A stretch of 32,000 nt of DNA, taken from positions 1,710,001 through 1,742,000 of the forward strand of contig NZ_CP027570.1 of assembly GCF_003010495.1 (NCBI RefSeq), written 5' to 3'. The notes below the pieces were generated by a model. It saw only the letters and a program-made list of their open reading frames with translations. It searched no databases and was not told the origin of the DNA. Origin of the DNA: Megasphaera elsdenii DSM 20460. GTDB taxonomy: Bacteria; Bacillota; Negativicutes; Veillonellales; Megasphaeraceae. This document shows, one piece after another, positions 8,181 to 30,149 of this stretch (its first letter is position 1; every line of letters begins with the position of its first letter). The position numbers were made by a program, and so were the translations under genes.

Positions 8181-8199
8181 GCTAACCACTAGCCACTTA
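8181..8199 (+). repeat. CCACTA-type heptad repeats (GCTAACC ACTAGCC ACTTA)
   Basis: The repeats abut the next terminator. Confidence 0.7.
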
Positions 8200-8231: not shown

Positions 8232-8235
8232 GCTA

Positions 8236-8334
8236 TGTAATAAAAAAAGTTACACTAATTTCCGAAGAAGGGTTGACGAGATAGCTGTAATGTGATATAT
8301 TACAACTATCCTAATTGTAAATAAATTAATTACA
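8236..8334. promoter_or_regulatory. Three copies of the 19-bp palindrome TGTAA-N9-TTACA (putative operators)
   Basis: The copies lie at 8236-8254, 8286-8304 and 8316-8334, with centres 50 and 30 bp apart. The middle copy overlaps the -10 element and the third covers the early transcribed region. Confidence 0.6.
8273..8301 (+). promoter_or_regulatory. Promoter of the NAD(P)H-reductase/SirTM/macro operon (TTGACG-17-TATATT with extended -10 TG)
   Basis: TTGACG lies at 8273-8278, TG at 8293-8294 and TATATT at 8296-8301. Confidence 0.65.
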
Positions 8335-8396
8335 ACAAGGAACATTCCATTTCAACATATATTTGCATTGCGCTGTGCGCAGAAAGGTAGTCTATT

Positions 8397-9035: not shown

Positions 9036-9067
9036 GTTTTTCATCGCTATTGAAGGAGGTGCCGGGA

Positions 9068-9970: not shown

Positions 9971-10748
9971 ACAACTTGCTTTTTTGATTCACCAGCTTCA
10001 GCAGGAAATGCCGGAATACGCCGCTTATGACATTCCCGATGACGATGGTCAGGCGTTCCAGCTCTACCGGGCCTTGTGCAACGTCCGCCAGCCGGGGAAA
10101 CATGTGCCGTCGCCGCAGTTCCTAGCTGCCGAAGCGGCTGTCCTCCAGGGACTGACGCGGGAAAAAGGGATTACCGATGGCCGCTATCTGCCGGCCATTC
10201 CTAGCCATGAGCATCTGCATCTCTGGCAAGGAGATATTACGACGCTGGCTGTCGATGCCATCGTCAATGCCGCTAATGACCAGCTCCTGGGCTGTTTTCG
10301 ACCGCTCCACTCGTGTATCGACAATATGATCCATACTATGGCCGGCGTGGCTTTGCGGGAACGATGTTTTACTATCATGCAGGCCCAGGGCCATGCTGAG
10401 GCGACGGGCCAGGCGAAAATCACGCCGGCTTACAACCTGCCCTGCCGCTACGTCCTGCATACCGTCGGACCTATCGTCCGGGGGGCTTTGACGCCACAGA
10501 CCCAAGGCCAGCTGGCTTCGTGCTATCGGAGCTGCCTCGACTTGGCCGCCGCCAAAGGCTGCCAGTCCCTGGCCTTCTGCTGCATCTCGACAGGCGTCTT
10601 CGGCTTCCCTAAAAAAGAAGCGGCCCACATTGCCGTAACCAACGTATCGCAGTGGCTGCGGCAACATGAGCCGATAGAAGTCGTCTTCAACGTTTTTACC
10701 GAGGAAGATTATAGGATATATAATCGTTATTTACATAAAGGAGTATGA
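9957..10748 (+). CDS. Macrodomain protein, SirTM-associated Zn-type (ADP-ribose hydrolase)
   Basis: The macro core is LWQGDITTLAVDAIVNAANDQLLG...VLHTVGP. The Cys/His insertion GCFRPLHSCIDNMIH is characteristic of Zn-dependent macrodomains in SirTM operons. The gene overlaps the SirTM gene by 14 nt and has a strong RBS (GGGGGGAGAG). Confidence 0.8.
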   Translation: MNRHEQLAFLIHQLQQEMPEYAAYDIPDDDGQAFQLYRALCNVRQPGKHVPSPQFLAAEAAVLQGLTREKGITDGRYLPAIPSHEHLHLWQGDITTLAVDAIVNAANDQLLGCFRPLHSCIDNMIHTMAGVALRERCFTIMQAQGHAEATGQAKITPAYNLPCRYVLHTVGPIVRGALTPQTQGQLASCYRSCLDLAAAKGCQSLAFCCISTGVFGFPKKEAAHIAVTNVSQWLRQHEPIEVVFNVFTEEDYRIYNRYLHKGV

Positions 10749-10753
10749 TTATT

Positions 10754-10963
10754 ATGAAAAAGATTATTTTAGCTGTCCTCTTTGGAGCATTCAGTGTAAG
10801 CGGAATGGCTGCTTTTGCAACTGCCCCTGTTCACCAAGGTTATTCGGAAAATGGTGATTATCAAGCTGTTGTAAATCAGCAAATAAACACGACTGAGCTG
10901 AGAGGCCCAGTATCACATACCTATTCAGAAAATGGCGATTACCAAGCAGCTCCGGCCAGATAG
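10754..10963 (+). CDS. Small exported protein with duplicated YSENGDYQA motif
   Basis: It has a Sec signal (MKKIILAVLFGAFSVSGMAAFA, then TAP). The mature part is about 47 aa, has no Lys, and contains two copies of YSENGDYQA. The RBS AAAGGAG is 10 nt upstream of ATG 10754. I recognise no homolog. Confidence 0.5.
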   Translation: MKKIILAVLFGAFSVSGMAAFATAPVHQGYSENGDYQAVVNQQINTTELRGPVSHTYSENGDYQAAPAR

Positions 10964-11161
10964 AACCCTGCGGGCCGCCTTACCAGGCGGCCGATGCCAA
11001 CCTCTTCCGAAGAACCTCTCAGACCGCCGTTGGCGGCCAGCTCCCCTATGAAGGGGAGCCTTTGGGCGCTCCTGCGCCTGATTTCCAGAGTCTATTGCGG
11101 CAAAGCCGCTTCTGAGTCCGAGCAAACAGGTCCCTACGGTGCGGCCATAAGGCCGCAAAAA

Positions 11162-11194
11162 CGAACCACGAACCACTAGCCACGAGCCACGAAC
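11162..11194 (+). repeat. Heptad tandem array CGAACCA CGAACCA CTAGCCA CGAGCCA CGAAC
   Basis: The array abuts the stop codon (11196-11198) of the minus-strand porin gene. Confidence 0.85.
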
Positions 11195-11195
11195 A

Positions 11196-12542
11196 TTAAA
11201 ACAGCATCTGGAAGTGGATGCGGGTCATTTCGTGGGGATCCTGGCTGCCGGTCTTGGCCTGGCTGGCGAAGGACTGCATGACGCTGAATTTCAGGTTCTT
11301 GGCGACGATGTAGTCGACGCCGATACCCCAGCTGCGCTGGTTATCCATGTCGCTGGAGAAACGCCACGTGAAGGGGTTGCCGCCGAGGAAGGAGCCGTCG
11401 TCGAGGTCGAGGTATTCCAGCCACGTATCCCAGCTGCCGGGAGCGGCGAAGGACGCATTGCCGTACTGGAGTTTGCCCATCCAGGCGTCGCCGTAATCCT
11501 GGCCGTCGACGTTCTTGACACCTGCGTTGAAGCCGATGTGTTCGTAGTTGGCCAGGGCGCTCCACTTGCCGTAGTTGCCGCGGGCGAAGTAGCCGGCAAT
11601 GTATTTGGCGAAATAGTCTTCTCCCGAGCTGTGGTTGGACTGGTGGAGGCGGTTGTAGTAAATGCCGGCTTCGGAACGGGCTGCTTTGCCGCCGCCGAAG
11701 AAGACGTCGATTTCGCCGTAGCCCGTCTTCAAGCCGTCGGTACTGAAGTGGTCCGAATGGGCGTCGGAAATAGGTTTCACCGTATCGACGCCGGGCTTCT
11801 TGCCGTCCTTGAATTTGCCGTAGCCCGTGGTGATGGCCAGGTTATCGTTGTGATAGCGCAGTTCGGCGCCGTCCAGGGCATCGAAGTACTGCAGACCATA
11901 GGCGTCGCGGCCGATGCGGTAGACGTCATTGCGGCCGACGCTGAGTTCCCAGTTCTTGCTGCCGAAGTTGTAATCCACTTTGGCTAAATCCATATAGGGG
12001 TTGTTGCCTTCGTCAGAAGCGGCTTTGTTGCTGGCGAAGGGGCGAAAGCCCGTGCTGACACCGGCTGTGACCTTGGTGCGGTCATTGACCTGGCCTTGGG
12101 CACGGATGCGGAAGCGCGTATCCCAGGAATTGTCGTTCTTCTTGTTGCCGTTCTGGTAACGGTAACGGACGAAGGCATCGCCGAAAACGCGGGTGTTGCC
12201 GACGCGGTTTTCCAGGTTGGTCACGCGGACGCCGAGGTTGTTCAGTTCGTCGGCATATTCGTCAGCCAGCTTGTTGATCAGGGCCCGCTGTTCGACAGAG
12301 GCTTTGTCCATATGGGCCATGGCCTTGGCGACCATTTCAGCGGCTTCGTAGCGGGTGATGTTGCGATGGCCCTGGAAATACTGACCGTCGACGCCCTGGA
12401 TGATACCGGCGTCGGCCAGTTCGACGACGGACTTGTAAGCCCAGCTGTCAGACGGGACATCGACAAAGGGATTCGCGGCTAAGGCCGACAGGGAAGTGAC
12501 AGCTAAGGCGGCTGTCAGGGTACAGACTACTTGTTTCTTCAC
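11196..12542 (-). CDS. OmpM-like outer-membrane porin with N-terminal SLH domain
   Basis: It has a signal peptide, then an SLH domain (FVDVPSDSWAYKSVVELADAGIIQGVDGQYFQGHRNITRYEAAEMVAKA). A coiled-coil linker follows, then an aromatic/Gly-rich beta-barrel region ending in a terminal Phe (IHFQMLF). The start codon is GTG. The architecture is typical of Negativicutes. Confidence 0.85.
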   Translation of the reverse strand: MKKQVVCTLTAALAVTSLSALAANPFVDVPSDSWAYKSVVELADAGIIQGVDGQYFQGHRNITRYEAAEMVAKAMAHMDKASVEQRALINKLADEYADELNNLGVRVTNLENRVGNTRVFGDAFVRYRYQNGNKKNDNSWDTRFRIRAQGQVNDRTKVTAGVSTGFRPFASNKAASDEGNNPYMDLAKVDYNFGSKNWELSVGRNDVYRIGRDAYGLQYFDALDGAELRYHNDNLAITTGYGKFKDGKKPGVDTVKPISDAHSDHFSTDGLKTGYGEIDVFFGGGKAARSEAGIYYNRLHQSNHSSGEDYFAKYIAGYFARGNYGKWSALANYEHIGFNAGVKNVDGQDYGDAWMGKLQYGNASFAAPGSWDTWLEYLDLDDGSFLGGNPFTWRFSSDMDNQRSWGIGVDYIVAKNLKFSVMQSFASQAKTGSQDPHEMTRIHFQMLF

Positions 12543-12617
12543 GAATCAAAGACCTTCTTTCTTCTCGTTCTTTTTGCGTATGCAGAAAAACGCATAAAAT
12601 TATACATTGCATTTAGT

Positions 12618-12647
12618 ATACTACGGCACGTTATGATTGTGTGTCAA
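12618..12647 (-). promoter_or_regulatory. Candidate promoter of the porin gene (TTGACA-18-TAGTAT on the minus strand)
   Basis: tgtcaa lies at 12642-12647 and atacta at 12618-12623 in plus-strand coordinates. An alternative TATAAT lies nearby. Confidence 0.4.
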
Positions 12648-12671
12648 ATGAGAAGAAAGTTTACTTTTTAT

Positions 12672-13394
12672 TTATAATTTTACGTGGCTGAAGACTTCAC
12701 CAATCGGGTCGTGGAGCACCAGGTCGGCTGCGCTGTCCATGTCCGTACTGGATTTGTTGATCAAGACCAGTTTATGGCCGCGGTAGTAACGGACCAGACC
12801 GGCTGCTGGGTAGACGACGAGGCTCGTGCCGCCGATGATGAGCATATCGGCGTGGCTGATGTAGTACAGGGACTGTTCGATGACGTCGTTGTCCAGGCCT
12901 TCTTCATAGAGGACGACGTCAGGCTTGATGATGCCGCCGCAGGCGTCGCACTTGGGGATGCCTGTGGAATTCTTCATGTATTCGGCGTCGAAGAACTTGT
13001 TGCAGTGCATGCAGAAGTTACGATGGACGCTGCCGTGTAGTTCCAAGACGTTTTGGCTGCCCGCTTTCTGGTGCAGGCCGTCGATGTTCTGGGTGACGAT
13101 GGCTTTTAGTTTGCCCGCTTTTTCCAGTTCGGCCAGTTTGATATGGGCCATGTTGGGCTGGGCGTCGAGGGCCAGCATCTTGTCGCGGTAGAAGCGGTAA
13201 AATTCTTCCGTGTTGTCCATGAAGAAGGAATGGCTGAGGATCGTTTCGGGCGGGTATTTATAGTGCTGGTTGTACAGGCCGTCGGTGCTGCGGAAATCGG
13301 GGATGCCGCTTTCCGTCGAGACGCCGGCGCCGCCGAAGAAGACGATGTTATCGGAATTTTTGACCATGTCGACGAATTTTTCAATATCTGTCAT
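12672..13394 (-). CDS. cobB: NAD-dependent protein deacylase, canonical Sir2/CobB
   Basis: GGAGVSTESGIPDFRS, TQNIDGLH, the catalytic His in LELHGS and the Zn ribbon CMHC...CDAC are all present. The start is taken at MTDIEKF, with AAGGAG 8 nt upstream. Confidence 0.9.
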   Translation of the reverse strand: MTDIEKFVDMVKNSDNIVFFGGAGVSTESGIPDFRSTDGLYNQHYKYPPETILSHSFFMDNTEEFYRFYRDKMLALDAQPNMAHIKLAELEKAGKLKAIVTQNIDGLHQKAGSQNVLELHGSVHRNFCMHCNKFFDAEYMKNSTGIPKCDACGGIIKPDVVLYEEGLDNDVIEQSLYYISHADMLIIGGTSLVVYPAAGLVRYYRGHKLVLINKSSTDMDSAADLVLHDPIGEVFSHVKL

Positions 13395-13408
13395 CGTAAG
13401 GGCTCCTT

Positions 13409-13900
13409 TCACACATGATACGTATCTTTTAATAATTGCAGACCCGATGGGGTACGGAATACCTTGTCGCGGAAGGTGGCAATGGCTTCCGGTTTCAGCT
13501 GGTCTTCATAGGCGTTGACCAAAAAATCGGCTTCCAGGAGTATCTGGTAGTCCAGGCCGTCGATGCCGTCGTAGGTGTGGTGGTGGGCGATGAGGAAGCA
13601 GACCCGGTCGATGAGCTTTTCGTCAGCACCGAGTTCTTCCAGGATGGCCCTGGCCGGGGCGGGACCTTCGATTTCCTGGTATTTGCCCGACGAGGAACCG
13701 TATTTTTCTTCGGCTGCGTGGATGCCGATGTCGTGGAGGACGGCGGCTGTCCGCAGGATGTCCTGCTGGTCTGCCGGCAGTCCTTCCAGGCGGCCGATGG
13801 TGTCGGCGTAGGCGTAGACCTTGAGGAAATGGTGGATGCGCCGGGCGTCGCCGTGGTCGAAGGCGATGGCTTTTTGTATTACTTGTTCAATAGATGTCAT
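13409..13900 (-). CDS. HD-domain phosphohydrolase-family protein
   Basis: HHFLKV...AAVLHDIG...IAHHHTY matches the H..HD..H metal-binding pattern. The stop lies 14 nt upstream of the cobB start, so the two are probably one operon. Confidence 0.7.
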   Translation of the reverse strand: MTSIEQVIQKAIAFDHGDARRIHHFLKVYAYADTIGRLEGLPADQQDILRTAAVLHDIGIHAAEEKYGSSSGKYQEIEGPAPARAILEELGADEKLIDRVCFLIAHHHTYDGIDGLDYQILLEADFLVNAYEDQLKPEAIATFRDKVFRTPSGLQLLKDTYHV

Positions 13901-13980
13901 GGGAATCCCTGCCTTTCCTTTTCATTATACTACAGGGTCGGGAGGATAGGAACGGGGTAGGACCATTCCTCCATAACCTA

Positions 13981-14010
13981 TTGACAAATTATCATAGAAT
14001 CCTTTATCAT
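13981..14010 (+). promoter_or_regulatory. Candidate promoter of the AGCS transporter gene (TTGACA-18-TATCAT)
   Basis: TTGACA lies at 13981-13986 and TATCAT at 14005-14010. Confidence 0.45.
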
Positions 14011-14071
14011 TTTTAAAGAACTTCTTTATTTATTTTATACTTTTTTTGTTTTATAGTAAGGATGTGATTCT

Positions 14072-15478
14072 ATGATTATGGCTGTCCTGAACTATCTCGA
14101 TGATGTCCTTTATTATCCTATTTTAATGGTCATCCTCATCGCAGCCGGCCTTATTTTTTCCTGGAAGACGCGCTGTGTCCAGCTGCGCCTGTTCCCGGAG
14201 AGTATCCGTGTCGTCATGGAAAAACCGACAGAAGCCGGGAAAGTATCGTCTTTCCAGGCCCTTATGGTTTCGACGGCGTCCCGTGTCGGTACGGGCAATA
14301 TCATCGGCGTATCGACGGCAATCTGCCTGGGTGGTCCCGGCGCTGTCTTCTGGATGTGGCTCCTAGCCATCATCGGCGGGGCGACGGCCTTTATTGAAAG
14401 TACGTTGGCTCAGATTTACAAGCGCCGCAATCCCTTAGGCCACAGTTACGGCGGTCCGGCCTATTACATTGAAACGGCCATGCATCAGCGCTGGCTCGGC
14501 GTCCTCTTTGCCTTTGCCCTGATCGTGACTTATGCCGGCGGCTTTAACCTGCTCTGCTCGTTCAACATGCAGTCGACGTTCCTCGTCTACAGTTTCTACG
14601 ACCCGACGACGACGCCGTGGATCATCGGCGCTGTCTTTGCCGCTCTCGTCGCATACTGCCTCATCGGCGGCGGCCAGCGTATCATTAAGGTCACATCGGT
14701 CCTGGTTCCGGTCATGGGCGGCGTCTATATCCTGGCAGCCCTCATCGTCATCCTTTTCCACATCACCAGCCTGCCGCAGGTCTTCGCCATGATTTTTGCC
14801 GATGCCTTCGATTTCCAGTCCATCCTCGGCGGCATCTCCGGCTCCTGCATGATCTATGGTATCAAGCGCGGCCTCTATTCCAATGAAGCCGGTATCGGTT
14901 CGGCCCCGAATGCGGCAGCCGCAGCCGATGTCAGCCATCCGGTTAAACAGGGCCTGGTCCAGATGCTGTCGGTCTTCATCGACACCCTCCTGGTCTGCAG
15001 TGCCACGGCTTTCATGGGCCTTTTCTCGGGCGTGCCCATCACCAAGGAAGTAGCCGGTGCGGCTTATGTCCAGAATGCAGCGACAGCCGTCTTCGGCGGC
15101 TTCGGTCCGCTCCTGATTACGATTTGTATGCTCCTCTTCGGCTTCTCTACGCTCATCGGCAACCTGTTCTACGTCGATAACTGCATCCGCTTTATCCACA
15201 AGGGGGCTCCGTCCCACGGTTTCGTCAATACCTTCCGTATTGTCTGCGTCCTCGTCGTCTTCGTCGGCGCCGGCATGTCCATGGCCGCTGTCTGGGATAT
15301 TGCCGATATCCTCATGGCTGTCATGTGCTTCATCAACATCCCGGCCTGCTTCATCCTGGGCAATACGGCTGTCAAAGCTATGCGCGACTACCAGCAGCAG
15401 AAGAAGGAAGGCAAGAACCCTGTCTTCAAGGCGGCTTCCATCGGTATCGATGAAAGTACGGTCCAATATTGGAAGTAA
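14072..15478 (+). CDS. Alanine/glycine:cation symporter (AGCS family)
   Basis: The AGCS signature region is FQALMVSTASRVGTGNIIGVSTAICLGGPGAVFWMWLLAIIGGATAFIESTLAQIYK. There are about 11 hydrophobic segments. Confidence 0.88.
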   Translation: MIMAVLNYLDDVLYYPILMVILIAAGLIFSWKTRCVQLRLFPESIRVVMEKPTEAGKVSSFQALMVSTASRVGTGNIIGVSTAICLGGPGAVFWMWLLAIIGGATAFIESTLAQIYKRRNPLGHSYGGPAYYIETAMHQRWLGVLFAFALIVTYAGGFNLLCSFNMQSTFLVYSFYDPTTTPWIIGAVFAALVAYCLIGGGQRIIKVTSVLVPVMGGVYILAALIVILFHITSLPQVFAMIFADAFDFQSILGGISGSCMIYGIKRGLYSNEAGIGSAPNAAAAADVSHPVKQGLVQMLSVFIDTLLVCSATAFMGLFSGVPITKEVAGAAYVQNAATAVFGGFGPLLITICMLLFGFSTLIGNLFYVDNCIRFIHKGAPSHGFVNTFRIVCVLVVFVGAGMSMAAVWDIADILMAVMCFINIPACFILGNTAVKAMRDYQQQKKEGKNPVFKAASIGIDESTVQYWK

Positions 15479-15483
15479 TCCTC

Positions 15484-15512
15484 TTGACAAATGGGGGAGA
15501 AGCCTTTACAAT
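15484..15512 (+). promoter_or_regulatory. ileS promoter (TTGACA-17-TACAAT)
   Basis: TTGACA lies at 15484-15489 and TACAAT at 15507-15512. Confidence 0.7.
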
Positions 15513-15544
15513 ACGTCTATGTACAAGTAATTGTCATAAAAAAT

Positions 15545-15776
15545 GAAAAGCGATGAACAAGACGGCCAGTGTCGCCTACGCCTTTTCAGCGAACCGGGGA
15601 TAGTGAGAGCCCGGCAAAGGCCGTATGCTGGCGGATCACTTGGGAGCTGCAGCTGCGAACCAGCTGCCGGGTCGCGTCGTTATTGCGCGTCAAAGTGGCT
15701 GCTCCGGCAGTCAATAGGGTGGTACCACGGTGATTACGTCTTCGTCCCTTTTGGGACGGAGACGTTATTTTTTTTC
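15545..15776 (+). promoter_or_regulatory. T-box riboswitch, Ile specifier (AUC)
   Basis: The stem I base is AGCGATGAACAAGA and the distal motif is AGTGAGAG. The specifier ATC lies at 15635-15637 and is followed by A. The T-box sequence AATAGGGTGGTACCACGG lies at 15713-15730. The terminator stem is ACGTCTTCGTCCC/GGGACGGAGACGT (15736-15765) with a T-run. Confidence 0.9.
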
Positions 15777-15799
15777 ACAGATTCAGAGGAGGAAACATA

Positions 15800-18595
15800 A
15801 TGGATTACGGTAAGACTTTACATCTGCCTCAGACCGATTTCCCCATGCGCGGCAACTTGCCGAAACGGGAACCGGACTTTTTGAAATTCTGGCAGGACAA
15901 CAAGATTTATGAAAAACGCTTGAAGAAACGGGACGGTGCGCCCAAGTTTATTCTTCACGACGGTCCTCCGTATGCCAATGGCAAAATCCACATCGGCCAT
16001 GCATTGAATAAAGTATTAAAAGATATTATCCTCAAATATAAGACCCAGCAGGGCTGCTACACGAAATACGTTCCCGGCTGGGATACGCACGGCCTTCCTA
16101 TCGAACATGCCGTCATCAAAGATACGGGCTTGAACCGCCACGAAATGGCACCGCTCGACTTGCGCGCCAAATGCCGTGACTACGCCTTGGCCCGCGTAGA
16201 AGAACAGAAGAAAGACTTTATCCGCCTCGGCGTCCTCGGTGATTGGGACCATCCGTACCTGACCTTGCGCAAACCCGTCGAAGTCGCTCAGATCGGTGTC
16301 TTTGGCGAAATGGCCAAGAAAGGCTATATCTACAAAGGCCTGAAGACTGTTTACTGGTGCCCGCACTGCGAAACGGCCCTGGCTGAAGCTGAAATCGAAT
16401 ACAAGGATGATAAGTCCTTCTCCATTTACGTTAAATTCAAGTCCGTCGACCTCAATTGCCATATGCCGAAAGGCGCTGACCCGGACAAAGTCTTCGCCCT
16501 CATTTGGACGACGACGCCTTGGACCATTCCTTGCAACGTTGCCATCAGTGCCAACGAAAACTTTGAATACGTCTGGGTCCGCATCGGCGATGAATACCTG
16601 CTCATGGCCAAAGATTTGGTCGAACCGACCATGAAAGCTGGCAAAGTCGAAGACTACGAAGTCCTGCCGGACGTCATGACAGGCAAGCAGCTCGAAGGCT
16701 TGGTCTTCAAGCATCCCTTCTACGACCGCAAGGTTCCCATCATCCTCGGCGACCACGTCACGCTCGAAGCTGGTACCGGCCTCGTCCATACCGCTCCGGA
16801 CCATGGCCAGGACGACTTTGATGTCTGCAAGAAATATGCTGCTTGGGGCCTCAAACCGTTGGGTACTGTCGACGGCACAGGCCGTTATACCGACAAGGTT
16901 CCTGGTTTTGAAGGTCAGTTTGTCTTCGATACGAACGTACCGGTCATCAAAAAATTAGCTGAACTGGGCGCCCTTTTTGCCAAGAGCACTTTCCGCCATC
17001 AGTATCCGCACTGCTGGCGCTGCAAGGAACCGATCATCTACCGCGCTACGGAACAGTGGTTTGCTTCGGTTGACGGTTTCCGCCAGAAAGCACTCGACGC
17101 AATCGATACAGTCAAATGGATTCCGTCCTGGGGCCACGACCGCATTTACAACATGATTCACGACCGCGGTGACTGGTGCATTTCCCGTCAGCGTGTCTGG
17201 GGCGTGCCTATTCCTATCTTCTACTGCGAAGACTGCGGGGAACACATCATCAACGACGAAACCATCGCTCACTTGCAGAAGATGTTTGCCGAAGAAGGGT
17301 CCGATACGTGGTGGATGCACGACGTCAAGGAACTCATGCCGGAAGGCTATAAATGCCCGCACTGCGGCGGTACACACTTCCGCAAGGAAACGGATATCAT
17401 GGACGTCTGGTTCGACAGCGGCTGCACCCATCAGGGCGTACTGAAAAACGATCCGGACCTCGATTATCCCTGCGAAATGTACCTGGAAGGCTCGGACCAG
17501 CATCGCGGCTGGTTCAACAGCTCCCTGCTCACGTCGGTCGCTGTCAACGGCTATGCACCGTATAAATCGGTTTTGACCCACGGCTTCACCGTCGACGGCG
17601 AAGGCCGCAAGATGAGTAAATCTGTCGGCAACACCGTCGCTCCCCAGGAAGTCATCGAAAAATATGGTGCTGATGTCCTCCGCCTGTGGGTATCGTCGGC
17701 TGATTATCAGGGTGATATCCGCTTGTCGCCGAAGATCTTGAAACAGCTCTCCGACGTCTACCGCAAGATCCGCAACACCTTCCGTTACCTCCTGGGCAAC
17801 CTGGCTGACTTCGATCCGGCTAAGGATATGATTGCCTACCAGGACATGACGGACCTCGATAAATGGGCTCTCCTGCGCCTGGAACAGGTCTTCGAAGAAG
17901 TTACCGACGCTTATGAAAATTACCAGTTCCACGTCATGTACCACGCTATCCACAACTTCTGCACCGTCGATTTGAGTGCCATGTACCTGGATGTCATCAA
18001 AGACCGCCTGTACACGGAAAAGGCTGATTCCCAGATCCGCCGCAGCGCCCAGTCGGCTATGTACGTCATCCTCGATACGCTGGTCAAGATCGTCGCACCG
18101 GTCCTGTCCTTCACGGCAGAAGAAGTATGGCAGAACATGCCGGCTGTCGAAGGCAAGGAAGAAAGTGTCCTCCTCACGGATTGGCCGAAAGCTCATAAAG
18201 AATACCTCGACGCCGACCTCGATGCCCGCTGGGCTCAGTTCTTGTCGTACCGCCGCGATTTGACGCGTGTCCTCGAAGGCGCTCGTAAAGAACACAAGAT
18301 CGGCCATGCTCTCGACGCTGCCGTCACTATCTATGCCGATGGCGAAGATTACGATTTCCTCAGCCAGTGGCAGGATCAGCTGGCTACGCTGCTCATCGTC
18401 AGCGAAGCCAAACTGGTCAAAGGCGAAGCTCCGGCTGATGCCGTTGCCGGTGAAGACCATGCTGATATGAAAGTCGTCGTCGTCCCGTCGACAGCTGAAA
18501 AATGCGAACGCTGCTGGATCCACAGCGATACCGTCGGCTCTGACCCAAATCACCCGACCCTCTGCGCCCGCTGCGCCGCCGTATTAAGTGAATAA
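15800..18595 (+). CDS. ileS: Isoleucine--tRNA ligase
   Basis: The HIGH region is PYANGKIHIGHALN and the KMSKS motif is GRKMSKSVGN. A CP1 editing insertion and a C-terminal Zn finger (CERCW...CARC) are present. The protein is 931 aa. Confidence 0.97.
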   Translation: MDYGKTLHLPQTDFPMRGNLPKREPDFLKFWQDNKIYEKRLKKRDGAPKFILHDGPPYANGKIHIGHALNKVLKDIILKYKTQQGCYTKYVPGWDTHGLPIEHAVIKDTGLNRHEMAPLDLRAKCRDYALARVEEQKKDFIRLGVLGDWDHPYLTLRKPVEVAQIGVFGEMAKKGYIYKGLKTVYWCPHCETALAEAEIEYKDDKSFSIYVKFKSVDLNCHMPKGADPDKVFALIWTTTPWTIPCNVAISANENFEYVWVRIGDEYLLMAKDLVEPTMKAGKVEDYEVLPDVMTGKQLEGLVFKHPFYDRKVPIILGDHVTLEAGTGLVHTAPDHGQDDFDVCKKYAAWGLKPLGTVDGTGRYTDKVPGFEGQFVFDTNVPVIKKLAELGALFAKSTFRHQYPHCWRCKEPIIYRATEQWFASVDGFRQKALDAIDTVKWIPSWGHDRIYNMIHDRGDWCISRQRVWGVPIPIFYCEDCGEHIINDETIAHLQKMFAEEGSDTWWMHDVKELMPEGYKCPHCGGTHFRKETDIMDVWFDSGCTHQGVLKNDPDLDYPCEMYLEGSDQHRGWFNSSLLTSVAVNGYAPYKSVLTHGFTVDGEGRKMSKSVGNTVAPQEVIEKYGADVLRLWVSSADYQGDIRLSPKILKQLSDVYRKIRNTFRYLLGNLADFDPAKDMIAYQDMTDLDKWALLRLEQVFEEVTDAYENYQFHVMYHAIHNFCTVDLSAMYLDVIKDRLYTEKADSQIRRSAQSAMYVILDTLVKIVAPVLSFTAEEVWQNMPAVEGKEESVLLTDWPKAHKEYLDADLDARWAQFLSYRRDLTRVLEGARKEHKIGHALDAAVTIYADGEDYDFLSQWQDQLATLLIVSEAKLVKGEAPADAVAGEDHADMKVVVVPSTAEKCERCWIHSDTVGSDPNHPTLCARCAAVLSE

Positions 18596-18605
18596 AAGTT
18601 GAATG

Positions 18606-18641
18606 AAAAAGGCGCTGTCCCATGAAGACAGCGCCTTTTTT
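18606..18641 (+). terminator. ileS intrinsic terminator
   Basis: AAAAA is followed by GGCGCTGTC (18611-18619), loop CCATGAA, GACAGCGCC (18627-18635) and TTTTTT. Confidence 0.9.
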
Positions 18642-18643
18642 AG

Positions 18644-20541
18644 GTGCGCCCGGCATGGGCGCACTCTAATGGGTGAAAGTCCCTAAGCCGCCCGGTAGCG
18701 GGAAGGCTATAGCCAGAACCAAGGGTGTCCATCGTGAGATGGAATCTGAAGGAAGGTCGAGGCAAATCTCTGGTCTGACGAACAGAAATCACATAAGGCT
18801 AGTCATGGGGATAAGGCCGCCTAACAGGTTGAAGTCCCATAGCTACACGGAACCATGAATAGTAGATGTGGCAGACACATGGAGAGAAAGAGTGCGTTCT
18901 TACCCGGGGAGGCCTCATGGACATGATGGTGCCATATAGATTGGACATCATGGTTGAAATAAGATTTATCATGAGGAGTCAGCCGAGGCCATAGTACCTT
19001 ATGGGCTATAGACCATGAGGAAAGGGCCGAATCCTAGGAGATGTTAGTTAATGAAAGTAACCAATCATGGAATGAAAGACAGAAAACTTCATCAAGAAGG
19101 CTGTCCACAAAAAGAGGTTGCGGAACAATCGGGATATGTGGAAGCGTCTGCCCATGCGAGGATTGCTGAACACAACGACATCATTGCAAGCTTGCCAGCG
19201 GACAGTCTGTTGAAGCAGATTTTATCACGAGACAACTTAAATGGTGCCTATAAGAAGGTAAAGTCTAATCGAGGAACCGGCGGGGTCGACAGGATGAGTG
19301 TAGATGAACTTCTACCCTACCTGCGGGAACATCGCCTGGACCTCCTTCAGCAAATACGGAATGGGAAATATAAGCCCCAGCCAGTCCGTCGGGTTGAAAT
19401 ACCCAAAGAGGAAAAAGGGAAATTCCGGAAATTAGGAATCCCTACGGTCGTAGACCGCATGATACAACAGGCGATTACGCAGGTTCTTGTGCCTATCTAC
19501 GAGCCACAGTTTTCAGATAGCAGTTTCGGGTTCCGTCCCAAACGGGGCGCCCACGATGCGTTGAAACAATGCCAGGCCTATGCAGATGAGGGCTATGTCT
19601 ACGTCGTAGACATGGACTTGGAGAAATTTTTCGACAATGTCTGCCAAAGCAAATTGATAGAAGTTCTGTCAAGGAGCGTAAAAGACGGCCGGGTCATCTC
19701 GCTGATACACCAATATCTCCATGCTGGTGTTATCCGGCATGGGATGTTCGAACGAAGTGAACAGGGGGTTCCCCAAGGAGGGCCATTGAGTCCGCTCTTG
19801 AGTAACATCATGCTGAATGAGCTGGATAAGGAGCTGGAACGGCGCGGACATAAATTTGTCCGCTATGCAGATGACTGCATGATACTCTGCAAAAGCAGAA
19901 GAAGTGCCGAAAGGACCTTGGAAAGCATCACTCGATATATTGAGAAGAAATTATTTCTCAAGGTGAATCGAAATAAGACGCACGTAGCCCACATCCGCTA
20001 TGTTAAATATCTGGGATATGGCTTCTACCGAAAGAATGGAAAATGCCGACTCCGGGTGCATCCGAAATCCATTACTAAGATGAAAGACCGTTTGCGGTTT
20101 ATATTGAAACGAAGCAATGGAAAAGGAAACGAAGTGAGAGCCCTTCTATTGAAACGATTCATAAAGGGATGGGTGAATTACTTTAAACTAGCGAATATGA
20201 AGGAACTGCTAATTCAAATTGACAGATGGATTCGACGCAAAATACGAACCATATACTGGAAACAATGGAAGAAGGTACGGACGAAACACCGGATGATAAG
20301 CCAATACGGCGCGCCCAAGTGGGTAGTGTTGGAAATGGCTAACTGCCGAAAAGGTCCGTGGCGAGCAGCGGCAATGCTGAACTCAGTTCTTACGAATAAA
20401 GAAATAGCCCGCCTTGGCTACATAACCATGACGAGCTATTACAAGCAAGTATGCGAAAACTAGGAAACCGCCGTGTACCGAACGGTACGCACGGTGGTGT
20501 GAGAGGTCGGGATTTCTACTCAGAAATCCCTCCTACTCGAT
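18644..20541 (+). mobile_element. Group II intron (bacterial class-C-like), full length with intron-encoded protein
   Basis: The 5' end is GTGCG at 18644. The ORF lies in domain IV. Domain V is CCGCCGTGTACCGAACGGTACGCACGGTGG (20468-20497), with a CGC triad and a 2-nt bulge. Domain VI has a 9-bp helix GGGATTTCT/AGAAATCCC and a bulged A at 20535. The 3' end is AT at about 20540-20541 (uncertain by a few nt). Insertion 8 nt past a terminator stem is the class C hallmark. Confidence 0.85.
19051..20463 (+). CDS. Group II intron reverse transcriptase/maturase (no endonuclease domain)
   Basis: RT blocks are present (GVDRMSVDEL, RRVEIPKEEKGKFRKLGIPTVVDRMIQQA, FGFRPKRGAHDAL, GVPQGGPLSPLLSNIML, YADD in VRYADDCMILC). 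A maturase X region follows (GWVNYFKLA). The protein ends without an HNH/En domain. Confidence 0.93.
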   Translation: MKVTNHGMKDRKLHQEGCPQKEVAEQSGYVEASAHARIAEHNDIIASLPADSLLKQILSRDNLNGAYKKVKSNRGTGGVDRMSVDELLPYLREHRLDLLQQIRNGKYKPQPVRRVEIPKEEKGKFRKLGIPTVVDRMIQQAITQVLVPIYEPQFSDSSFGFRPKRGAHDALKQCQAYADEGYVYVVDMDLEKFFDNVCQSKLIEVLSRSVKDGRVISLIHQYLHAGVIRHGMFERSEQGVPQGGPLSPLLSNIMLNELDKELERRGHKFVRYADDCMILCKSRRSAERTLESITRYIEKKLFLKVNRNKTHVAHIRYVKYLGYGFYRKNGKCRLRVHPKSITKMKDRLRFILKRSNGKGNEVRALLLKRFIKGWVNYFKLANMKELLIQIDRWIRRKIRTIYWKQWKKVRTKHRMISQYGAPKWVVLEMANCRKGPWRAAAMLNSVLTNKEIARLGYITMTSYYKQVCEN

Positions 20542-20542
20542 T

Positions 20543-20555
20543 GGCTCGTGGCTAG
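20543..20555 (-). repeat. Heptads in reverse orientation (GGCTCGT GGCTAG)
   Basis: This is the reverse complement of the CTAGCCA CGAGCC units seen at 11176-11189. It lies immediately 3' of the intron. Confidence 0.6.
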
Positions 20556-20634
20556 CCCATTATTAGAATTGGCGTATCTCGTTTTCGTGAATATTTTCAG
20601 GACGGGCGCCTCACGTGGTCGGCCCTATAGGGCA

Positions 20635-20648
20635 CGAACCACTATCAT
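20635..20648 (+). repeat. Heptads CGAACCA CTATCAT
   Basis: They are preceded by the small hairpin GCCC-TATA-GGGC (20622-20633). Confidence 0.5.
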
Positions 20649-22693: not shown

Positions 22694-22748
22694 AAACTCA
22701 AGAAATGGAAACGAACAAAAGAGGTCGTATGTCCGAACGCACGCGTAT

Positions 22749-22783
22749 CGCCGCCAGACATAGGGGGTACGCGGCGTTTTTTT
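22749..22783 (+). terminator. Terminator-like hairpin in the transketolase leader (or a distal panB terminator)
   Basis: CGCCGC (22749-22754) pairs with GCGGCG (22771-22776) across a 16-nt loop, followed by seven T. It lies 30 nt before the tkt start codon. Confidence 0.5.
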
Positions 22784-22814
22784 CTTGACGGCCTGACATA
22801 GGAGGCTATGCTTC

Positions 22815-24571: not shown

Positions 24572-24629
24572 AGTGGTTCGTGGCTCGTGATTCGCTAGCC
24601 ACTAGCCACTAACTGCTAACCACTAAAAA
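24572..24629. repeat. Head-to-head heptad array: 3 reverse units (GTGGTTC GTGGCTC GTGATTC) then 5 forward units (CTAGCCA CTAGCCA CTAACTG CTAACCA CTAAAAA)
   Basis: The array starts directly after the tkt stop codon. AGTGGTT (24572-24578) is the exact reverse complement of AACCACT (24618-24624). Confidence 0.85.
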
Positions 24630-24660
24630 AAGGCGCTGTCTTCATGCGACAGCGCCTTTT
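24625..24660 (+). terminator. Intrinsic terminator, near-identical inverted copy of the ileS terminator
   Basis: AAAAAAA is followed by GGCGCTGTC (24632-24640), loop TTCATGC, GACAGCGCC (24648-24656) and TTTT. Confidence 0.9.
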
Positions 24661-24712
24661 ATCATGCCAAGTCCGTATAGGATTTTTCAATGTATGCAAA
24701 ATCGGTAATTCG

Positions 24713-28579: not shown

Positions 28580-28680
28580 GTAATATCAAGAGCAGCTGAG
28601 GGACGGGCCCGATGACGCTGCGGCAACCTGCCAGCGGTAAGGTGCCAATTCCTACAGGCTATTCCTGAAAGATATCGTTA
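28580..28680 (+). promoter_or_regulatory. SAM-I (S-box) riboswitch aptamer
   Basis: ATATCAAGAGCAGCTGAGGGACGGGCCCGATGACGCTGCGGCAACC...GGTGCCAATTCCTACAGG...AAAGATAT matches the conserved S-box core (ATCAAGAG, GAGGGAC.GGCCCGATGA, GGCAACC, GGTGC.AATTCC) and closes P1. Confidence 0.9.
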
Positions 28681-28767: not shown

Positions 28768-30090
28768 ATGAACAACAATTCTTCTGGCGGCAAGGCCATC
28801 CGGGGACTGGATGTGCTCATCCTGGGGTTTGCCTTCTTCGCTACCTATTTCGGTGCAGGCAACTTGATTTTCCCGCCTCAGCTCGGCTTGAACAGCGGCA
28901 GTGATTTCCTGTCCGGCTTGGCTGGTTTGACGCTGTCCGGTATTTTCCTGCCGATTTTTACACTCATCATCATAGGCCTCAACGGCGACGTCCATGCCAT
29001 TACCGGACGGGTAGGGAAGAATACGTATAATATCCTTTTGGCAGCACTCATGCTGGTCTGTACCTTCGTATCCATTCCCCGTACCTGCGCGACGGCCATC
29101 CAGCTCGGTATTCAGGGCAACCTGCCGTCGGCACCGTTCGTCCCGCTGGTCATCGTTTATTTCGTCATCAGCTTCTTCTTCGTCGCTGACCAGAATAACG
29201 TCATGGACCGCATGGGCAAATACCTGACGCCCCTCCTGGCCCTGATCCTGGTCATCGTCGCCTTTGCCGGTATCTTCAATCCCTTGGGGACGCCCGTCGA
29301 TCCGGCTGTGGATCATCCCTTCGTCAACGCCTTCCTTGGCGGCTATAACACGGGCGACGTCCTGGTCAGCTTTATCATGGCTGCTGTCTTCATCAGTTCC
29401 ATTTACGGCAAAGGCTATACGACTGTCGGCCAGCGCAATAAAGTCCTCATCTACTGCGGCATCGTTTCCTTCATCCTGCTGCTCATCATCTACGGCAGCC
29501 TGCTCTACATGGGTGCCTGCGTCAGCGGCGATTATGCCCAGACCATCGGCCGTGCGGAACTCCTGGTCGCCATTATCCAGCGCGTCGGCACGTGGGTCAT
29601 GGTTCCCATGGGCATAGCCGTCGTCCTGGCCTGCCTGACGACGGCCATCGGTCAGGTTGCGGCTGTAGCTGAGTTCACCAGCACGGCTACGGGCAAACGC
29701 GTCAGCTACAAACAAGTGGCTGTCGTCTGCTGCATCTTGTCGGCCCTGACGGCCCTCCTCGGCGTCGACGGTATCGTCACCTACATCGGCTGGATCTTCG
29801 GTGTCTGCTACCCGCCGTGCCTGGCCCTCCTGATCCTGGGCATCATCGGTCGCTTCATGCCCAATAACGGCGCCTACAAGGGCTCGGTATACCTGGTCAC
29901 GCTCTTTGCTCTCCTGGAATCCCTGCCGGGCCTGAGCAGCCTGGGCTTTGCTAAGGCCATCGTTACGGCTACGCCCCTGTCGACCTACGGTTTCGGCTGG
30001 ATCGTGCCCTTCATCATCGGACTCATCGGCGGTTCCCTCATCGGCCACTTCGTCTCCAGCAAAGAACCGGTAGAAGCCGAAGCGAAATAA
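28768..30090 (+). CDS. brnQ: Branched-chain amino acid transport system II carrier (LIVCS/BrnQ family)
   Basis: The hallmark is FFATYFGAGNLIFPPQLG, with about 12 TM segments. The start is taken at MNNNSSGG, with RBS AGGGGG upstream. The track start at 28696 lies inside the riboswitch terminator. Confidence 0.88.
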   Translation: MNNNSSGGKAIRGLDVLILGFAFFATYFGAGNLIFPPQLGLNSGSDFLSGLAGLTLSGIFLPIFTLIIIGLNGDVHAITGRVGKNTYNILLAALMLVCTFVSIPRTCATAIQLGIQGNLPSAPFVPLVIVYFVISFFFVADQNNVMDRMGKYLTPLLALILVIVAFAGIFNPLGTPVDPAVDHPFVNAFLGGYNTGDVLVSFIMAAVFISSIYGKGYTTVGQRNKVLIYCGIVSFILLLIIYGSLLYMGACVSGDYAQTIGRAELLVAIIQRVGTWVMVPMGIAVVLACLTTAIGQVAAVAEFTSTATGKRVSYKQVAVVCCILSALTALLGVDGIVTYIGWIFGVCYPPCLALLILGIIGRFMPNNGAYKGSVYLVTLFALLESLPGLSSLGFAKAIVTATPLSTYGFGWIVPFIIGLIGGSLIGHFVSSKEPVEAEAK

Positions 30091-30118
30091 CACTAACCAC
30101 TAACCACTATCCACTAAA
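30091..30118 (+). repeat. Heptad tandem array CACTAAC CACTAAC CACTATC CACTAAA
   Basis: The array starts at the first base after the brnQ stop codon and runs into the terminator A-tract. Confidence 0.9.
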
Positions 30119-30149
30119 AATAGACTGCCTTTTGGGCAGTCTATTTTTC
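30116..30149 (+). terminator. Intrinsic terminator after brnQ
   Basis: TAGACTGCC (30121-30129) pairs with GGCAGTCTA (30135-30143) and is followed by TTTTT. Confidence 0.88.

Follow-up and report, generated by a model that had tools for sequence, protein, structure and literature searches.

The TAA stop codon of brnQ in Megasphaera elsdenii, a gut and rumen bacterium, is followed from the very next base by a short tandem array of seven-nucleotide units that extends into the A-tract of an intrinsic terminator, which raises the question of what such arrays are and how they came to lie there. We addressed it in a 32,000-nt stretch of the M. elsdenii DSM 20460 genome (the window; 10.4% non-coding), for which a first-pass annotation had listed eight sites with degenerate heptads at gene 3' ends, and in related genomes. 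The brnQ stop codon occupies positions 30088-30090 of the window and is followed by:

30091-30118, forward strand: brnQ 3' array of four units (CACTAAC, CACTAAC, CACTATC, CACTAAA), C-rich in the mRNA sense and predicted to be unpaired
30116-30149, unstranded: intrinsic terminator of brnQ, bidirectional (terminator-like on both strands) and built of an A-tract, a GC stem of 10 bp and a T-tract (-19.8 kcal/mol, z -7.7)

Heptad arrays in the window

All eight listed sites contain the heptads described, and both orientations occur, as had been reported. The other arrays and the elements belonging to them are:

2094-2120, forward strand: rpsI array of 14-nt period (CAAACGA/ACCACGC, two copies), between two tandem terminators after rpsI
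3340-3428, forward strand: second heptad family, inverted GTTTGAN x4 and TCAAACN x4 around the core GGTTAAATTTCAATCCAT, forming a long hairpin
3478-3498, forward strand: array 21 nt upstream of the U32 peptidase start codon, within the 5' untranslated region
8145-8233, forward strand: cassette copy after mutS2, with GTTTGAG, core GGCATGGTTTTTAATTTAAAGCCATCC, heptads at 8181-8199 and a terminator at 8199-8233
11162-11194, forward strand: SLH array (4.5 units), 1 nt away from the stop codon of SLH, a gene on the minus strand
20543-20555, reverse strand: array GGCTCGTGGCTAG in reverse orientation, now parted by an intron from the ileS terminator that it follows
20635-20648, forward strand: short array CGAACCACTATCAT preceding the pan leader, where the sister species has nine units
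24572-24594, forward strand: tktC G-rich array (reverse orientation), directly 3' of the stop codon, 1.5 to 3.5 units among strains
24595-24629, forward strand: tktC C-rich array entering the terminator A-tract, invariant in eight M. elsdenii strains
24628-24661, unstranded: tktC terminator, hairpin GGCGCTGTC-N7-GACAGCGCC, near-identical to the ileS terminator and inverted

The unit can be written CCAC-K-A-R, and its main forms, CCACGAA, CCACGAG, CCACTAA and CCACTAG, are near-equal in number and together make up 97 of the 168 units of the clade (clade counts rest on ~150 kb of non-redundant sequence). Position 4 is C in 99% of the units and position 6 is A in 93%, while position 5 is G or T in a ratio of ~50:50 (A or C in <4%) and position 7 is A or G; judged from the sequences, this variation departs from the prediction of simple drift and could have its source in recognition by a protein. 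TRF and lag analysis gave a period of 7 (or 14) nt at every array site, with the units arranged head to tail and without spacers; at 2094-2120 the simple 7-nt period first described had to be replaced by one of 14 nt, formed by two alternating heptads. CRISPR was rightly dismissed at the outset, as its repeats of ~23-50 nt alternate with unique spacers about as long.

Tandemly adjacent CCAC[GT]A[AGT] units were found seven times in the window and not once across 200 dinucleotide shuffles, and the seven arrays of the family compare with 0.27 per mononucleotide-shuffled window. Among the lags 4 to 12, runs of self-similarity occur in the window at lag 7 alone, and all five runs are intergenic. 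Indeed, all nine arrays of the window lie in non-coding DNA (P ~1e-9), and a gene-end intrinsic terminator lies ≤8 nt from the array end in five of the nine (P ~4e-6), which bears out the earlier picture of a degenerate, non-coding heptad family that often abuts terminators. None of the four leader terminators of the window (T-box, pan, SAM and tkt leader) has an array. The clade arrays (n=26) give the same picture: just three are intragenic, all of them chance-level matches of two units, and an array is present at about half of the gene-end terminators and at none of ~6 leader terminators.

The exact placement, proposed to be between stop codon and terminator at gene 3' ends, proved less uniform. 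It holds for brnQ and tktC, where arrays do begin right after the stop codon. The rpsI array, however, sits between two terminators and enters the second (2119-2156), the array at 3478-3498 belongs to a 5' untranslated region, and that at 20635-20648 lies upstream of a leader. The SLH array is preceded by a hairpin (GCGGCCATAAGGCCGC + A5) that is not a terminator, and the array at 20543-20555 followed the ileS terminator (18604-18643) before the group II intron that now separates the two inserted between them. The suggested enrichment close to stop codons (up to 100 nt downstream), tested against the rest of the intergenic DNA, was not significant in the window (6 of 9 arrays vs 42% expected, P=0.13). 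Likewise, 24 arrays show no significant bias in sense relative to transcription (16 vs 8, P=0.15), the sense strand being G-rich in 8 of them. Folding predicted the C-rich arrays to be unpaired, and paired the G-rich array of tktC with the adjoining C-rich one. Rfam at gathering thresholds matched nothing at the arrays, finding only a group II intron, a SAM riboswitch and the pan motif, and we found nothing in the published literature on repeats in Megasphaera.

Variation among strains and species

Nine strains with 99-100% identical BrnQ carry seven alleles of the brnQ array, which is 23, 30 or 37 nt long and has 3, 4 or 5 units. The U32 5' array has 1, 2 or 5 units by strain within near-identical flanks and includes two distinct 2-unit alleles, one with CTAGCCA; the SLH array, flanked by REP-like palindromes, is present, absent or rearranged by strain, and the rpsI array shows one SNP among nine strains. 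Length differences at five loci are all 0 mod 7, and positions are kept among strains. The possibility, raised at the outset, that the arrays are strain-specific slippage products without conserved position or sequence is therefore borne out for their length only, since position and unit family are kept within the species. Eight contigs with identical aldehyde dehydrogenase showed no array variation because they are too closely related; variation emerged with broader sampling.

Across species, arrays are found at orthologous positions despite sequence turnover. The sister species retains a single unit at brnQ, together with unrelated filler or REP-like inserts, and both the terminator and the downstream promoter region are kept; the distance from stop codon to hairpin is ~25-40 nt in every allele and in the sister species, with differing sequence. 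In the sister species a mosaic of hairpins takes the place of the C-rich tktC array, and the pan leader is preceded by five G-rich units that come after a tRNA terminator. The mutS2 array has an ortholog of six units in another Megasphaera species (L076), the SLH array has an orthologous one with a different unit mix in L033, and an array similar to that of rpsI precedes a terminator at about position 3330 of L134.

M. elsdenii carries 2.3-2.5 arrays per 10 kb, the sister species 0.6-1.5. No arrays were found in 355 kb of a group with 73-84% BrnQ identity or at M. hexanoica-like and other loci, and there is none in >550 kb of more distant Megasphaera species; these array-free species carry the same genes and similar terminators. 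The abundance in M. elsdenii, the lower numbers in the sister species and the absence from other Megasphaera point to a recent burst.

In a scan of 185,579 species genomes for CCACKAD we found >120 stretches in many phyla. To control for composition, permuted units were searched in viral contigs, where they gave 43, 89 and 27 stretches compared with 87 for the real unit. A deep conservation of the unit was therefore rejected, its presence across phyla reflecting a general abundance of heptads rather than a conserved element. In heptad-rich genomes from many phyla there are 231 perfect period-7 arrays (85 different units), but ≤16 for any other period. For 127 arrays of other phyla, stable hairpins were no commoner alongside the array than at control positions, so the association with terminators is a Megasphaera feature. 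Long arrays are frequent at contig ends in the scanned collections and may thus break assemblies.

A composite repeat with a predicted terminator at its end

Some arrays are part of a larger unit. In its fullest form this cassette measures ~110-150 nt. Its left arm, rich in G and T (TAGTTTGTAGTACGGAGTTTGTAG), is followed by a core rich in A and T (TTTAAATTT-N-AAGCCATCC) and then by variable heptads, ACTAAAAA, a GC hairpin and a T-tract. Left arm, core and terminator align across six copies from unrelated loci in three species, which covers a subset of the arrays only. The arm and core stretches flanking arrays are 25-60 nt long and have the same phylogenetic distribution as the arrays, neither motif being found in >550 kb of other Megasphaera species. 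The terminator hairpins have predicted energies of -18 to -21 kcal/mol and T-tracts, and near-identical ones recur at ileS, tktC and position 2611 of L078. The cassette arms are imperfect inverted heptads (5/7 complementary), and the second-family hairpin at 3340-3428 reaches -31.2 kcal/mol (z -4.3). The core is missing from the brnQ, SLH and U32 5' arrays and from the C-rich half of the tktC array, and from their sequences we infer that such core-less arrays are cassette remnants. No terminal inverted repeats, defined ends or target-site duplications were seen in the cassette copies, no mobilising enzyme was identified, and no clean empty-versus-filled site was found for the whole cassette.

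Several arrays adjoin REP-like palindromes with GTAG...CTAC ends, e.g. GTAGGGGGCGCCCCACGTGGGCGCCCCTAC. The first array unit is often CTACGAA, which continues the REP-like tail, and arrays frequently open at a CCCCTAC tail.

The suggestion that the arrays are passengers of a small mobile terminator cassette thus gains support, as several of them are the internal module of a dispersed repeat that ends in a predicted terminator, and near-identical terminator hairpins recur at unrelated loci. We give an even chance to the reading that they are heptanucleotide microsatellites of a lineage-specific interspersed intergenic repeat in M. elsdenii and its sister species, altered by slippage. The cassette, ending in a predicted bidirectional intrinsic terminator, would have been dispersed by mobility or recombination, and complete copies and fragments would build up where insertion is tolerated, chiefly in the slot from stop codon to terminator. 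There the array would win or lose units via slipped-strand mispairing, and a C-rich array in the mRNA would form an unstructured, G-poor spacer between stop codon and terminator hairpin, probably with no sequence-specific function.

The same length steps of 7 nt would also be expected if pure microsatellites had arisen in situ, by independent slippage at each locus and without any dispersed element, like the long simple-sequence repeats of Mrazek 2007, the shared unit reflecting a lineage-specific mutational or polymerase bias. The dominance of period 7 in heptad-rich genomes of many phyla, the commonness of the control units in viral contigs and the many Megasphaera arrays that lack cassette modules fit this scenario as well, and polymerase slippage has been proposed for an excess of heptads in two reports (PMC4679880, citing Mrazek 2007; PMC4692102). 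However, a single unit family is dominant at some two dozen clade loci, the arm and core flanks recur at unrelated loci with the distribution of the arrays, and near-identical terminators go with the arrays. We therefore regard an origin purely in situ as unlikely.

Possible functions of the heptads

The two binary positions of the unit, keto (G/T) and purine (A/G), beside a near-invariant CCAC and A, are what one might expect if the arrays were recognised by an oligomeric protein that binds nucleic acids. At the RNA level such a protein would read (G/U)A(G/A) triplets, spaced by 4 nt of CCAC and placed shortly before a terminator, by analogy with the control of termination by HutP or TRAP; at the DNA level it would read 7-bp units in direct or inverted order, as ribbon-helix-helix repressors do (omega of pSM19035). 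That the arrays adjoin terminators but never leader terminators, and keep orthologous positions while their sequence turns over, would be consistent with this. Yet close relatives differ between 1 and 5 units at brnQ before an unchanged terminator, some arrays lie in 5' untranslated regions or just upstream of promoters, and none occurs in other Megasphaera species despite the same genes and similar terminators; in addition, a G-rich sense is so common (16 vs 8) that the transcript would in many cases carry the complement of an RNA site. Recognition arrays thus seem rather improbable to us. A related proposal, which we rate as quite improbable, is that the common ancestor of M. elsdenii and its sister species acquired either a putative multimeric binder of DNA or RNA that reads CCAC-(G/T)-A-(A/G) every 7 nt and tunes termination or readthrough at many gene ends, or an enzyme that writes or spreads the heptads, a candidate being a single-strand transposase, REP-associated or of the IS200 type, that acts on ends like CTAC. 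It would account for the binary unit positions, for a burst that was sudden and confined to the lineage, and for the many arrays that start at a REP-like CCCCTAC tail.

Selection might also act on the tract as such, i.e. on a C-rich, G-poor and unstructured RNA. As a putative spacer it would hold a ribosome that has reached the stop codon away from the terminator hairpin and avoid competing structures, and as a loading tract it would be a candidate short entry site for Rho or an RNase. The predicted lack of pairing in C-rich arrays and the steady stop-to-hairpin distance at brnQ agree with such a role. However, one third of the arrays are G-rich in the sense strand, some lie 3' of a terminator or in 5' regions, and with 14-35 nt they are shorter than typical Rho loading sites, all of which makes selection for a spacer or loading tract very unlikely.

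Another idea of the first-pass annotation, that the arrays hold stop codons in all frames and catch readthrough or frameshifted ribosomes, starts from the arithmetic of the unit: as 7 mod 3 = 1, three TAA or TAG units place a stop codon in every frame. CCACTAA and CCACTAG indeed contain stop codons, CTAG does so on both strands, and at brnQ the array follows on directly from the stop codon. But 53 of the 168 units are CCACGAA or CCACGAG, without a stop on either strand; the arrays at 2094 and 3478 contain none and that at 11162 only one, and further arrays lie in 5' regions and after terminators. Even the brnQ array leaves one frame open, because one of its units has TAT. We therefore consider this function extremely unlikely.

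Significance of the arrays

Seven-base repeats were first reported in cyanobacteria in 1990, and we know of no explanation since then for their accumulation in bacteria. The Megasphaera arrays leave this puzzle unsolved but offer a convenient test system, with a recent burst, a culturable organism and natural alleles of one to five units before an otherwise identical terminator. Comparing the gene content of repeat-positive and repeat-negative species could reveal the polymerase, repair, transposase or binding function responsible. The arrays also mark operon boundaries and, M. elsdenii being a ruminant probiotic, are usable as length-variable markers for strain typing.

Comparison with known systems

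HutP sites consist of NAG-N4 three times, and the omega heptad is WATCACW, located at promoters or centromere sites of the genes regulated by the cognate protein. The likeness of the arrays to HutP and TRAP sites is formal only, i.e. (G/U)AR triplets 4 nt apart upstream of a terminator, and so is that to omega operators, with 7-bp units direct and inverted; unlike all of these, the arrays sit 3' of genes and not in leaders or promoters, occur on both strands and have an unconstrained copy number. Attenuation of the HutP/TRAP type relies on a ring-forming RNA-binding protein and on regularly spaced triplets in a 5' leader, which overlap a terminator or antiterminator and occur on the transcribed strand alone. 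It was rejected, as the arrays sit at 3' ends, at none of the ~6 leader terminators, and in 8 of 24 cases in the opposite sense. The omega consensus fits only occasional units (AATCACT, AATCACG), and most arrays are not at promoters. In contingency loci, simple sequence repeats sit within the coding frame or in the promoter spacer (-35 to -10), so that changes in unit number switch the gene on or off; this class was rejected as well, since the arrays follow stop codons, belong to a 5' untranslated region or precede a -35 box.

REP elements are imperfect palindromes, GC-rich and 20-40 nt long, in which a GTAG/CTAC tetranucleotide is conserved. The arrays, being direct repeats without a palindrome, are not REPs, although neighbours such as GTAGGGGGCGCCCCACGTGGGCGCCCCTAC do fit. 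With REP/BIME mosaics and REPINs (PMC3337134) they share the slots after stop codons, the mosaics of short motifs and the indel boundaries.

Similar in architecture are small modular repeats. Pneumococcal BOX is modular (boxA, boxB, boxC) with a variable boxB, and SPRITE is terminator-like and enriched at CDS 3' ends (PMC3049150). The Megasphaera cassette resembles BOX as a small modular non-coding repeat whose internal tandem module varies among strains, SPRITE as a dispersed repeat predicted to fold into a stem with a U-tract at CDS 3' ends, and both in its enrichment downstream of CDSs and its confinement to a species and its closest relatives. It differs from BOX in that the variable module is a 7-nt microsatellite and not a 45-nt boxB, and from both in its bidirectional terminator of ordinary size and in that no terminal inverted repeats of the insertion-sequence type were found. 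The BrickBuilt MITE of Porphyromonas gingivalis, with its internal 23-nt minisatellite (PMC4596501), likewise has a leader, a spacer-free tandem array and a tail, and is always intergenic, multi-copy and species-restricted. Its unit, however, is 23 rather than 7 nt long, it has defined inverted-repeat ends, of which none were seen in the Megasphaera cassette, and it has promoter activity where the cassette has a terminator.

The arrays also match intergenic heptanucleotide repeats, so the first impression that no element of this form had been described does not stand: they are known as cyanobacterial STRR, Xanthomonas GGGAATC and Nostoc GGGGAYT repeats (PMC4692102), as TAACTGA repeats in Beggiatoaceae (PMC4679880) and as heptanucleotide elements in Geobacter (PMC2700814). 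Known heptameric repeats occur near stop codons, on both strands and in inverted pairs, with position kept and length variable (PMC4692102). Similarly, the Megasphaera arrays consist of tandem 7-nt units (2-20 copies) that are nearly all intergenic, with one unit family per lineage; they lie mostly tens of nucleotides from a stop codon, on both strands and in inverted pairs, keep their position among relatives while length and sequence vary, and share the sporadic phylogenetic distribution. The G-quadruplex idea from Xanthomonas transfers poorly, as the G-rich strand in Megasphaera has GG runs only. In contrast to the known repeats, the Megasphaera arrays abut bidirectional intrinsic terminators and lie partly within a composite repeat. 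Taken together, intergenic heptanucleotide repeats are already documented elsewhere, and what is new here is the CCAC-K-A-R unit and its host among the Negativicutes.

Heptad arrays in the window

The repeats reported in the first-pass annotation are present at all eight sites that it listed. At the brnQ 3' end (30091-30118) the stop codon TAA is followed by the units CACTAAC, CACTAAC, CACTATC and CACTAAA and then by AATAGACTGCCTTTTGGGCAGTCTATTTTT; these four units span the entire gap between the stop codon and a terminator made up of A-tract, hairpin and T-tract (-19.8 kcal/mol, z -7.7), and the array itself is unpaired in the fold prediction. Within the window we found 7 tandemly adjacent CCAC[GT]A[AGT] units (0 in 200 dinucleotide shuffles) and 7 family arrays, i.e. 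arrays of the CCAC-K-A-R unit family (0.27 per shuffled window); the repeats are not produced by chance. Self-similar runs occur at lag 7 only (lags 4-12 tested), and every run is intergenic. Non-coding DNA makes up 10.4% of the window, yet it holds all nine arrays (P about 1e-9; the tktC pair taken as two). Five of the nine end ≤8 nt from one of six gene-end terminators (P about 4e-6), and none of the four regulatory leader terminators (T-box, pan motif, SAM riboswitch, transketolase leader) carries an array. The original observation is confirmed and sharpened; the suggested enrichment within 100 nt 3' of stop codons relative to other intergenic DNA is not significant (6/9 vs. 42% expected, P=0.13).

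Features of the window (genes by Pfam; genes not in the supplied tables were called by a simple codon-score predictor)
LysR regulator, rplM-rpsI, Fe-alcohol dehydrogenase, U32 peptidase, mutS2
Three small genes, then SLH-domain protein (minus strand), Sir2 protein, HD protein
Alanine symporter, ileS, then a group II intron
DUF2520-panB, split transketolase, NAD salvage genes
nth, BrnQ-family transporter, aldehyde dehydrogenase
2022-2156: two tandem intrinsic terminators 3' of rpsI, a 14-nt-period array between them
3340-3428: second heptad family, GTTTGAN and its complement TCAAACN, as inverted arrays around a TTAAATTTCAATCCAT core in the alcohol dehydrogenase-U32 peptidase gap
15544-15752: T-box leader before ileS (84.3 bits, E 4e-19, just below the Rfam gathering score)
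18644 to about 20536: group II intron (Rfam D1-D4 matches; RT/maturase ORF 19051-20463)
22700-22790: leader with a strong terminator (-24 kcal/mol), ahead of the split transketolase genes
28580-28678: SAM riboswitch preceding the BrnQ-family transporter (28768-30090)

The earlier picture of 7-nt arrays at gene 3' ends needs amendment at several sites. The rpsI array (2094-2120) is repetitive, but its period is 14 nt and it lies between the two tandem terminators; a 55-aa ORF called over 2022-2156 in public assemblies is probably spurious. In L133, an M. elsdenii-like metagenome contig, a prophage with integrase, repressor pair, RecT and YqaJ (10394-20393) is integrated directly 3' of rpsI and replaces terminators and array. 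The repeats at 3478 and 20635 are located not at gene 3' ends but in the U32 peptidase 5' untranslated region and upstream of the pan leader, respectively; upstream of this leader, the sister species lacks an intron and carries a tRNA gene. The 11162 array does abut the SLH stop codon on the other strand, but the preceding hairpin plus A5 is not a terminator. The 20543 array is indeed 3' of the ileS terminator, but not in direct contact with it: the group II intron sits immediately 3' of the T-tract and parts the terminator from this reverse-orientation array.

The window corresponds to about 2.38-2.41 Mb of HE576794.1 (M. elsdenii DSM 20460 chromosome), reversed, and its exact aldehyde dehydrogenase and S9 proteins are also encoded in many M. 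elsdenii-like assemblies. Genes for NAD(P)H-binding, hypothetical and Macro-domain proteins, together with a repeat cassette 3' of mutS2, occupy 8094-11160 in DSM 20460 and some strains; six other strains (L129, L131, L132, L136-L138) are without them, and mutS2 and the SLH gene are directly convergent there. The T-box leader terminator (15732-15769) has no heptads. The transketolase leader, which is kept in the sister species and matches no Rfam family at E<=0.1, may be a regulatory RNA. The M. hexanoica orthologue of the BrnQ-family transporter is flanked by two Cys/Met-metabolism PLP enzymes; because of these neighbours and the upstream SAM riboswitch, the transporter may carry methionine instead of branched-chain amino acids.

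Unit composition and orientation

We derived the unit spectrum from 168 phased units of non-redundant arrays of the M. elsdenii clade (M. elsdenii and its sister species). The commonest units are CCACGAA (30), CCACTAG (23), CCACGAG (23) and CCACTAA (21). C occupies position 4 in 99% of the units, and A occupies position 6 in 93%; position 5 is split about 50:50 between G and T (A or C <4%), and position 7 is A or G. Two binary positions next to near-invariant ones are the main unexplained point, and it is because of this spectrum that recognition of the unit by a protein stays alive as an explanation. The idea of frame-independent stop-codon arrays, in contrast, is excluded, since about half of the units carry no stop codon.

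Read in the sense of the upstream gene, arrays are either C-rich or G-rich, and a loose rule relates orientation to place: C-rich arrays run into the terminator A-tract (CCACTAAAAA-hairpin) or sit in 5' regions, and G-rich arrays begin 0-17 nt 3' of the stop codon (tktC, malic enzyme and SLH, each in at least two species) or directly 3' of a terminator T-tract. The sense-strand bias (16 C-rich vs. 8 G-rich) is not significant (P=0.15). At tktC, a G-rich and a C-rich array are predicted to pair as a hairpin upstream of the terminator.

Variation between strains and species

Array length changes in steps of 7 nt: at five loci all length differences are multiples of 7. The U32 5' array has 1, 2 or 5 units among M. 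elsdenii strains with almost identical flanks, including two distinct 2-unit alleles, one with CTAGCCA. Nine strains with 99-100% identical BrnQ share out seven brnQ alleles of 23, 30 or 37 nt with variously ordered TAA, TAG and TAT units, all of them spanning the distance from stop codon to A-tract. The tktC G-rich array varies from 1.5 to 3.5 units, the malic-enzyme array has 3 or 4, and the sister-species tktC array 2.5 to 4.5. Among eight very close contigs no array variation was found.

The sister species, whose BrnQ is 93-96% identical, has one CCACTAA in the brnQ slot beside the conserved terminator, preceded by unrelated filler or by one or two REP-like palindromes (GTAGGGGGCGCC..CACGTGG..GCGCCCCTAC). 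For the arrays that follow mutS2, SLH and malic enzyme, and for those ahead of the pan leader, the position is shared by two or three species, with differing number and mix of units; among strains the SLH array is present, absent or rearranged within a mosaic built of GC hairpins that have been duplicated. Against a function of the arrays at the RNA level, or one sensitive to dosage, stand three findings: copy number runs from 1 to 5 among close relatives, a third of all arrays are G-rich on the sense strand, and some lie in 5' regions.

A larger cassette

Several arrays have common flanks. Copies after mutS2 (8145-8233) and at other loci (L076 with two, L139 and L033 with one apiece, L001 with a decayed one) align to a cassette in which TAGTTTGTAGTACGGAGTTTGTAG and a short hairpin precede TTTAAATTT-N-AAGCCATCC; the heptads come next, and behind them ACTAAAAA, a GC hairpin (in many cases G-GCTGTC...GACAGC-C) and TTTT. 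Of these parts, left arm (GATAGTTTGTGGTATGGAGTCTGTAG), final unit and terminator are kept in the brnQ slot of the sister species. The 3340-3428 element is a variant with perfectly inverted GTTTGAN/TCAAACN arms and the same kind of core; its hairpin has -31 kcal/mol, and its arrays are nearly invariant in nine strains. Core and arm motifs are present only alongside heptads and are absent from >550 kb of other Megasphaera species. Near-identical terminator copies in either orientation are found at ileS, at tktC and in L078. Across the clade, surveyed over about 150 kb of non-redundant sequence representing part of the genome, about half of the gene-end terminators and 0 of about six leader terminators have an array.

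REP-like GC palindromes that have GTAG...CTAC ends and CACGTG at the centre (window 20604-20625; L139 3560-3700; sister-species brnQ 3' slot, L399-L410) are insertion-polymorphic between strains and often adjoin heptad arrays; CTACGAA, continuing a CCCCTAC tail, is the first unit of several arrays. About 155 nt of the sister-species panB-tktN spacer, a mosaic of heptads, two REP-like palindromes and a terminator, are missing from M. elsdenii.

Lineage restriction

Array density per 10 kb is 2.3-2.5 at M. elsdenii loci and 0.6-1.5 in the sister species. No period-7 arrays were found in 355 kb from species with 73-84% BrnQ identity, nor at M. hexanoica-like and other loci; the 62-68% identity group has two period-7 runs and zero family arrays in 160 kb. 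In the loci surveyed, period-7 arrays are restricted to one clade. About 50 kb of DSM 20460 carry 9-11 arrays; by rough extrapolation, a genome would contain a few hundred.

The pattern CACKADCCACKADCCACKADCCAC matched >120 stretches from Acidobacteriota, Chloroflexota, Planctomycetota, cyanobacteria, Bacteroidota and others. We rejected these matches as a conserved element: in viral contigs, permutations of the unit with unchanged composition matched 43, 89 and 27 stretches, and the real unit matched 87. Loci matching outside the genus contain 85 different heptad units. Loci L009-L128, heptad-bearing and drawn from many phyla (867 kb in all), contain 231 perfect arrays of at least 3 copies with period 7, and no other period between 4 and 12 exceeds 16; the general feature across phyla is the 7-nt period. 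Arrays in other phyla show no enrichment of adjacent hairpins. Many matches among L009-L128 fall at contig ends, which suggests that long heptad arrays break assemblies.

Interpretation and relation to known repeats

The best-supported explanation is a lineage-specific small interspersed repeat with a bidirectional terminator at its end, which would have been mobile and spread into tolerated intergenic slots. Its internal heptad module and the remnants thereof would change length by slipped-strand mispairing, and in transcripts the C-rich array would act as an unstructured spacer ahead of the terminator, probably with no specific function of its own.

Intergenic heptanucleotide repeats are a described class without established function (PMC4692102, PMC4679880). 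MacGregor (2015) reported TAACTGA repeats of Beggiatoaceae and, in summarising Mrazek (2007), ranks heptanucleotides first in abundance among long simple-sequence repeats and relays the idea of polymerase slippage (PMC4679880). The GGGAATC and GGGGAYT repeats of Rehm (2015) are 89-93% intergenic, mostly <50 nt from a stop codon, occur on both strands with frequent inverted pairs, and are found between corresponding genes of related species, where their length and sequence vary (PMC4692102); families with four or five heptanucleotides in tandem are known from Geobacter metallireducens (PMC2700814). Modular counterparts are the pneumococcal BOX, a composite interspersed repeat with a variable tandem module, and SPRITE, a terminator-like interspersed repeat enriched at CDS 3' ends (PMC3049150), as well as a Porphyromonas MITE containing an internal minisatellite (PMC4596501). 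Our literature search found no report of Megasphaera repeats. Their main interest is as a recent and tractable example with which to approach the long-standing question why bacteria form seven-base repeats. Rather than a new class, the Megasphaera repeat is a previously undescribed example of both heptanucleotide intergenic repeats and modular interspersed repeats with a terminator.
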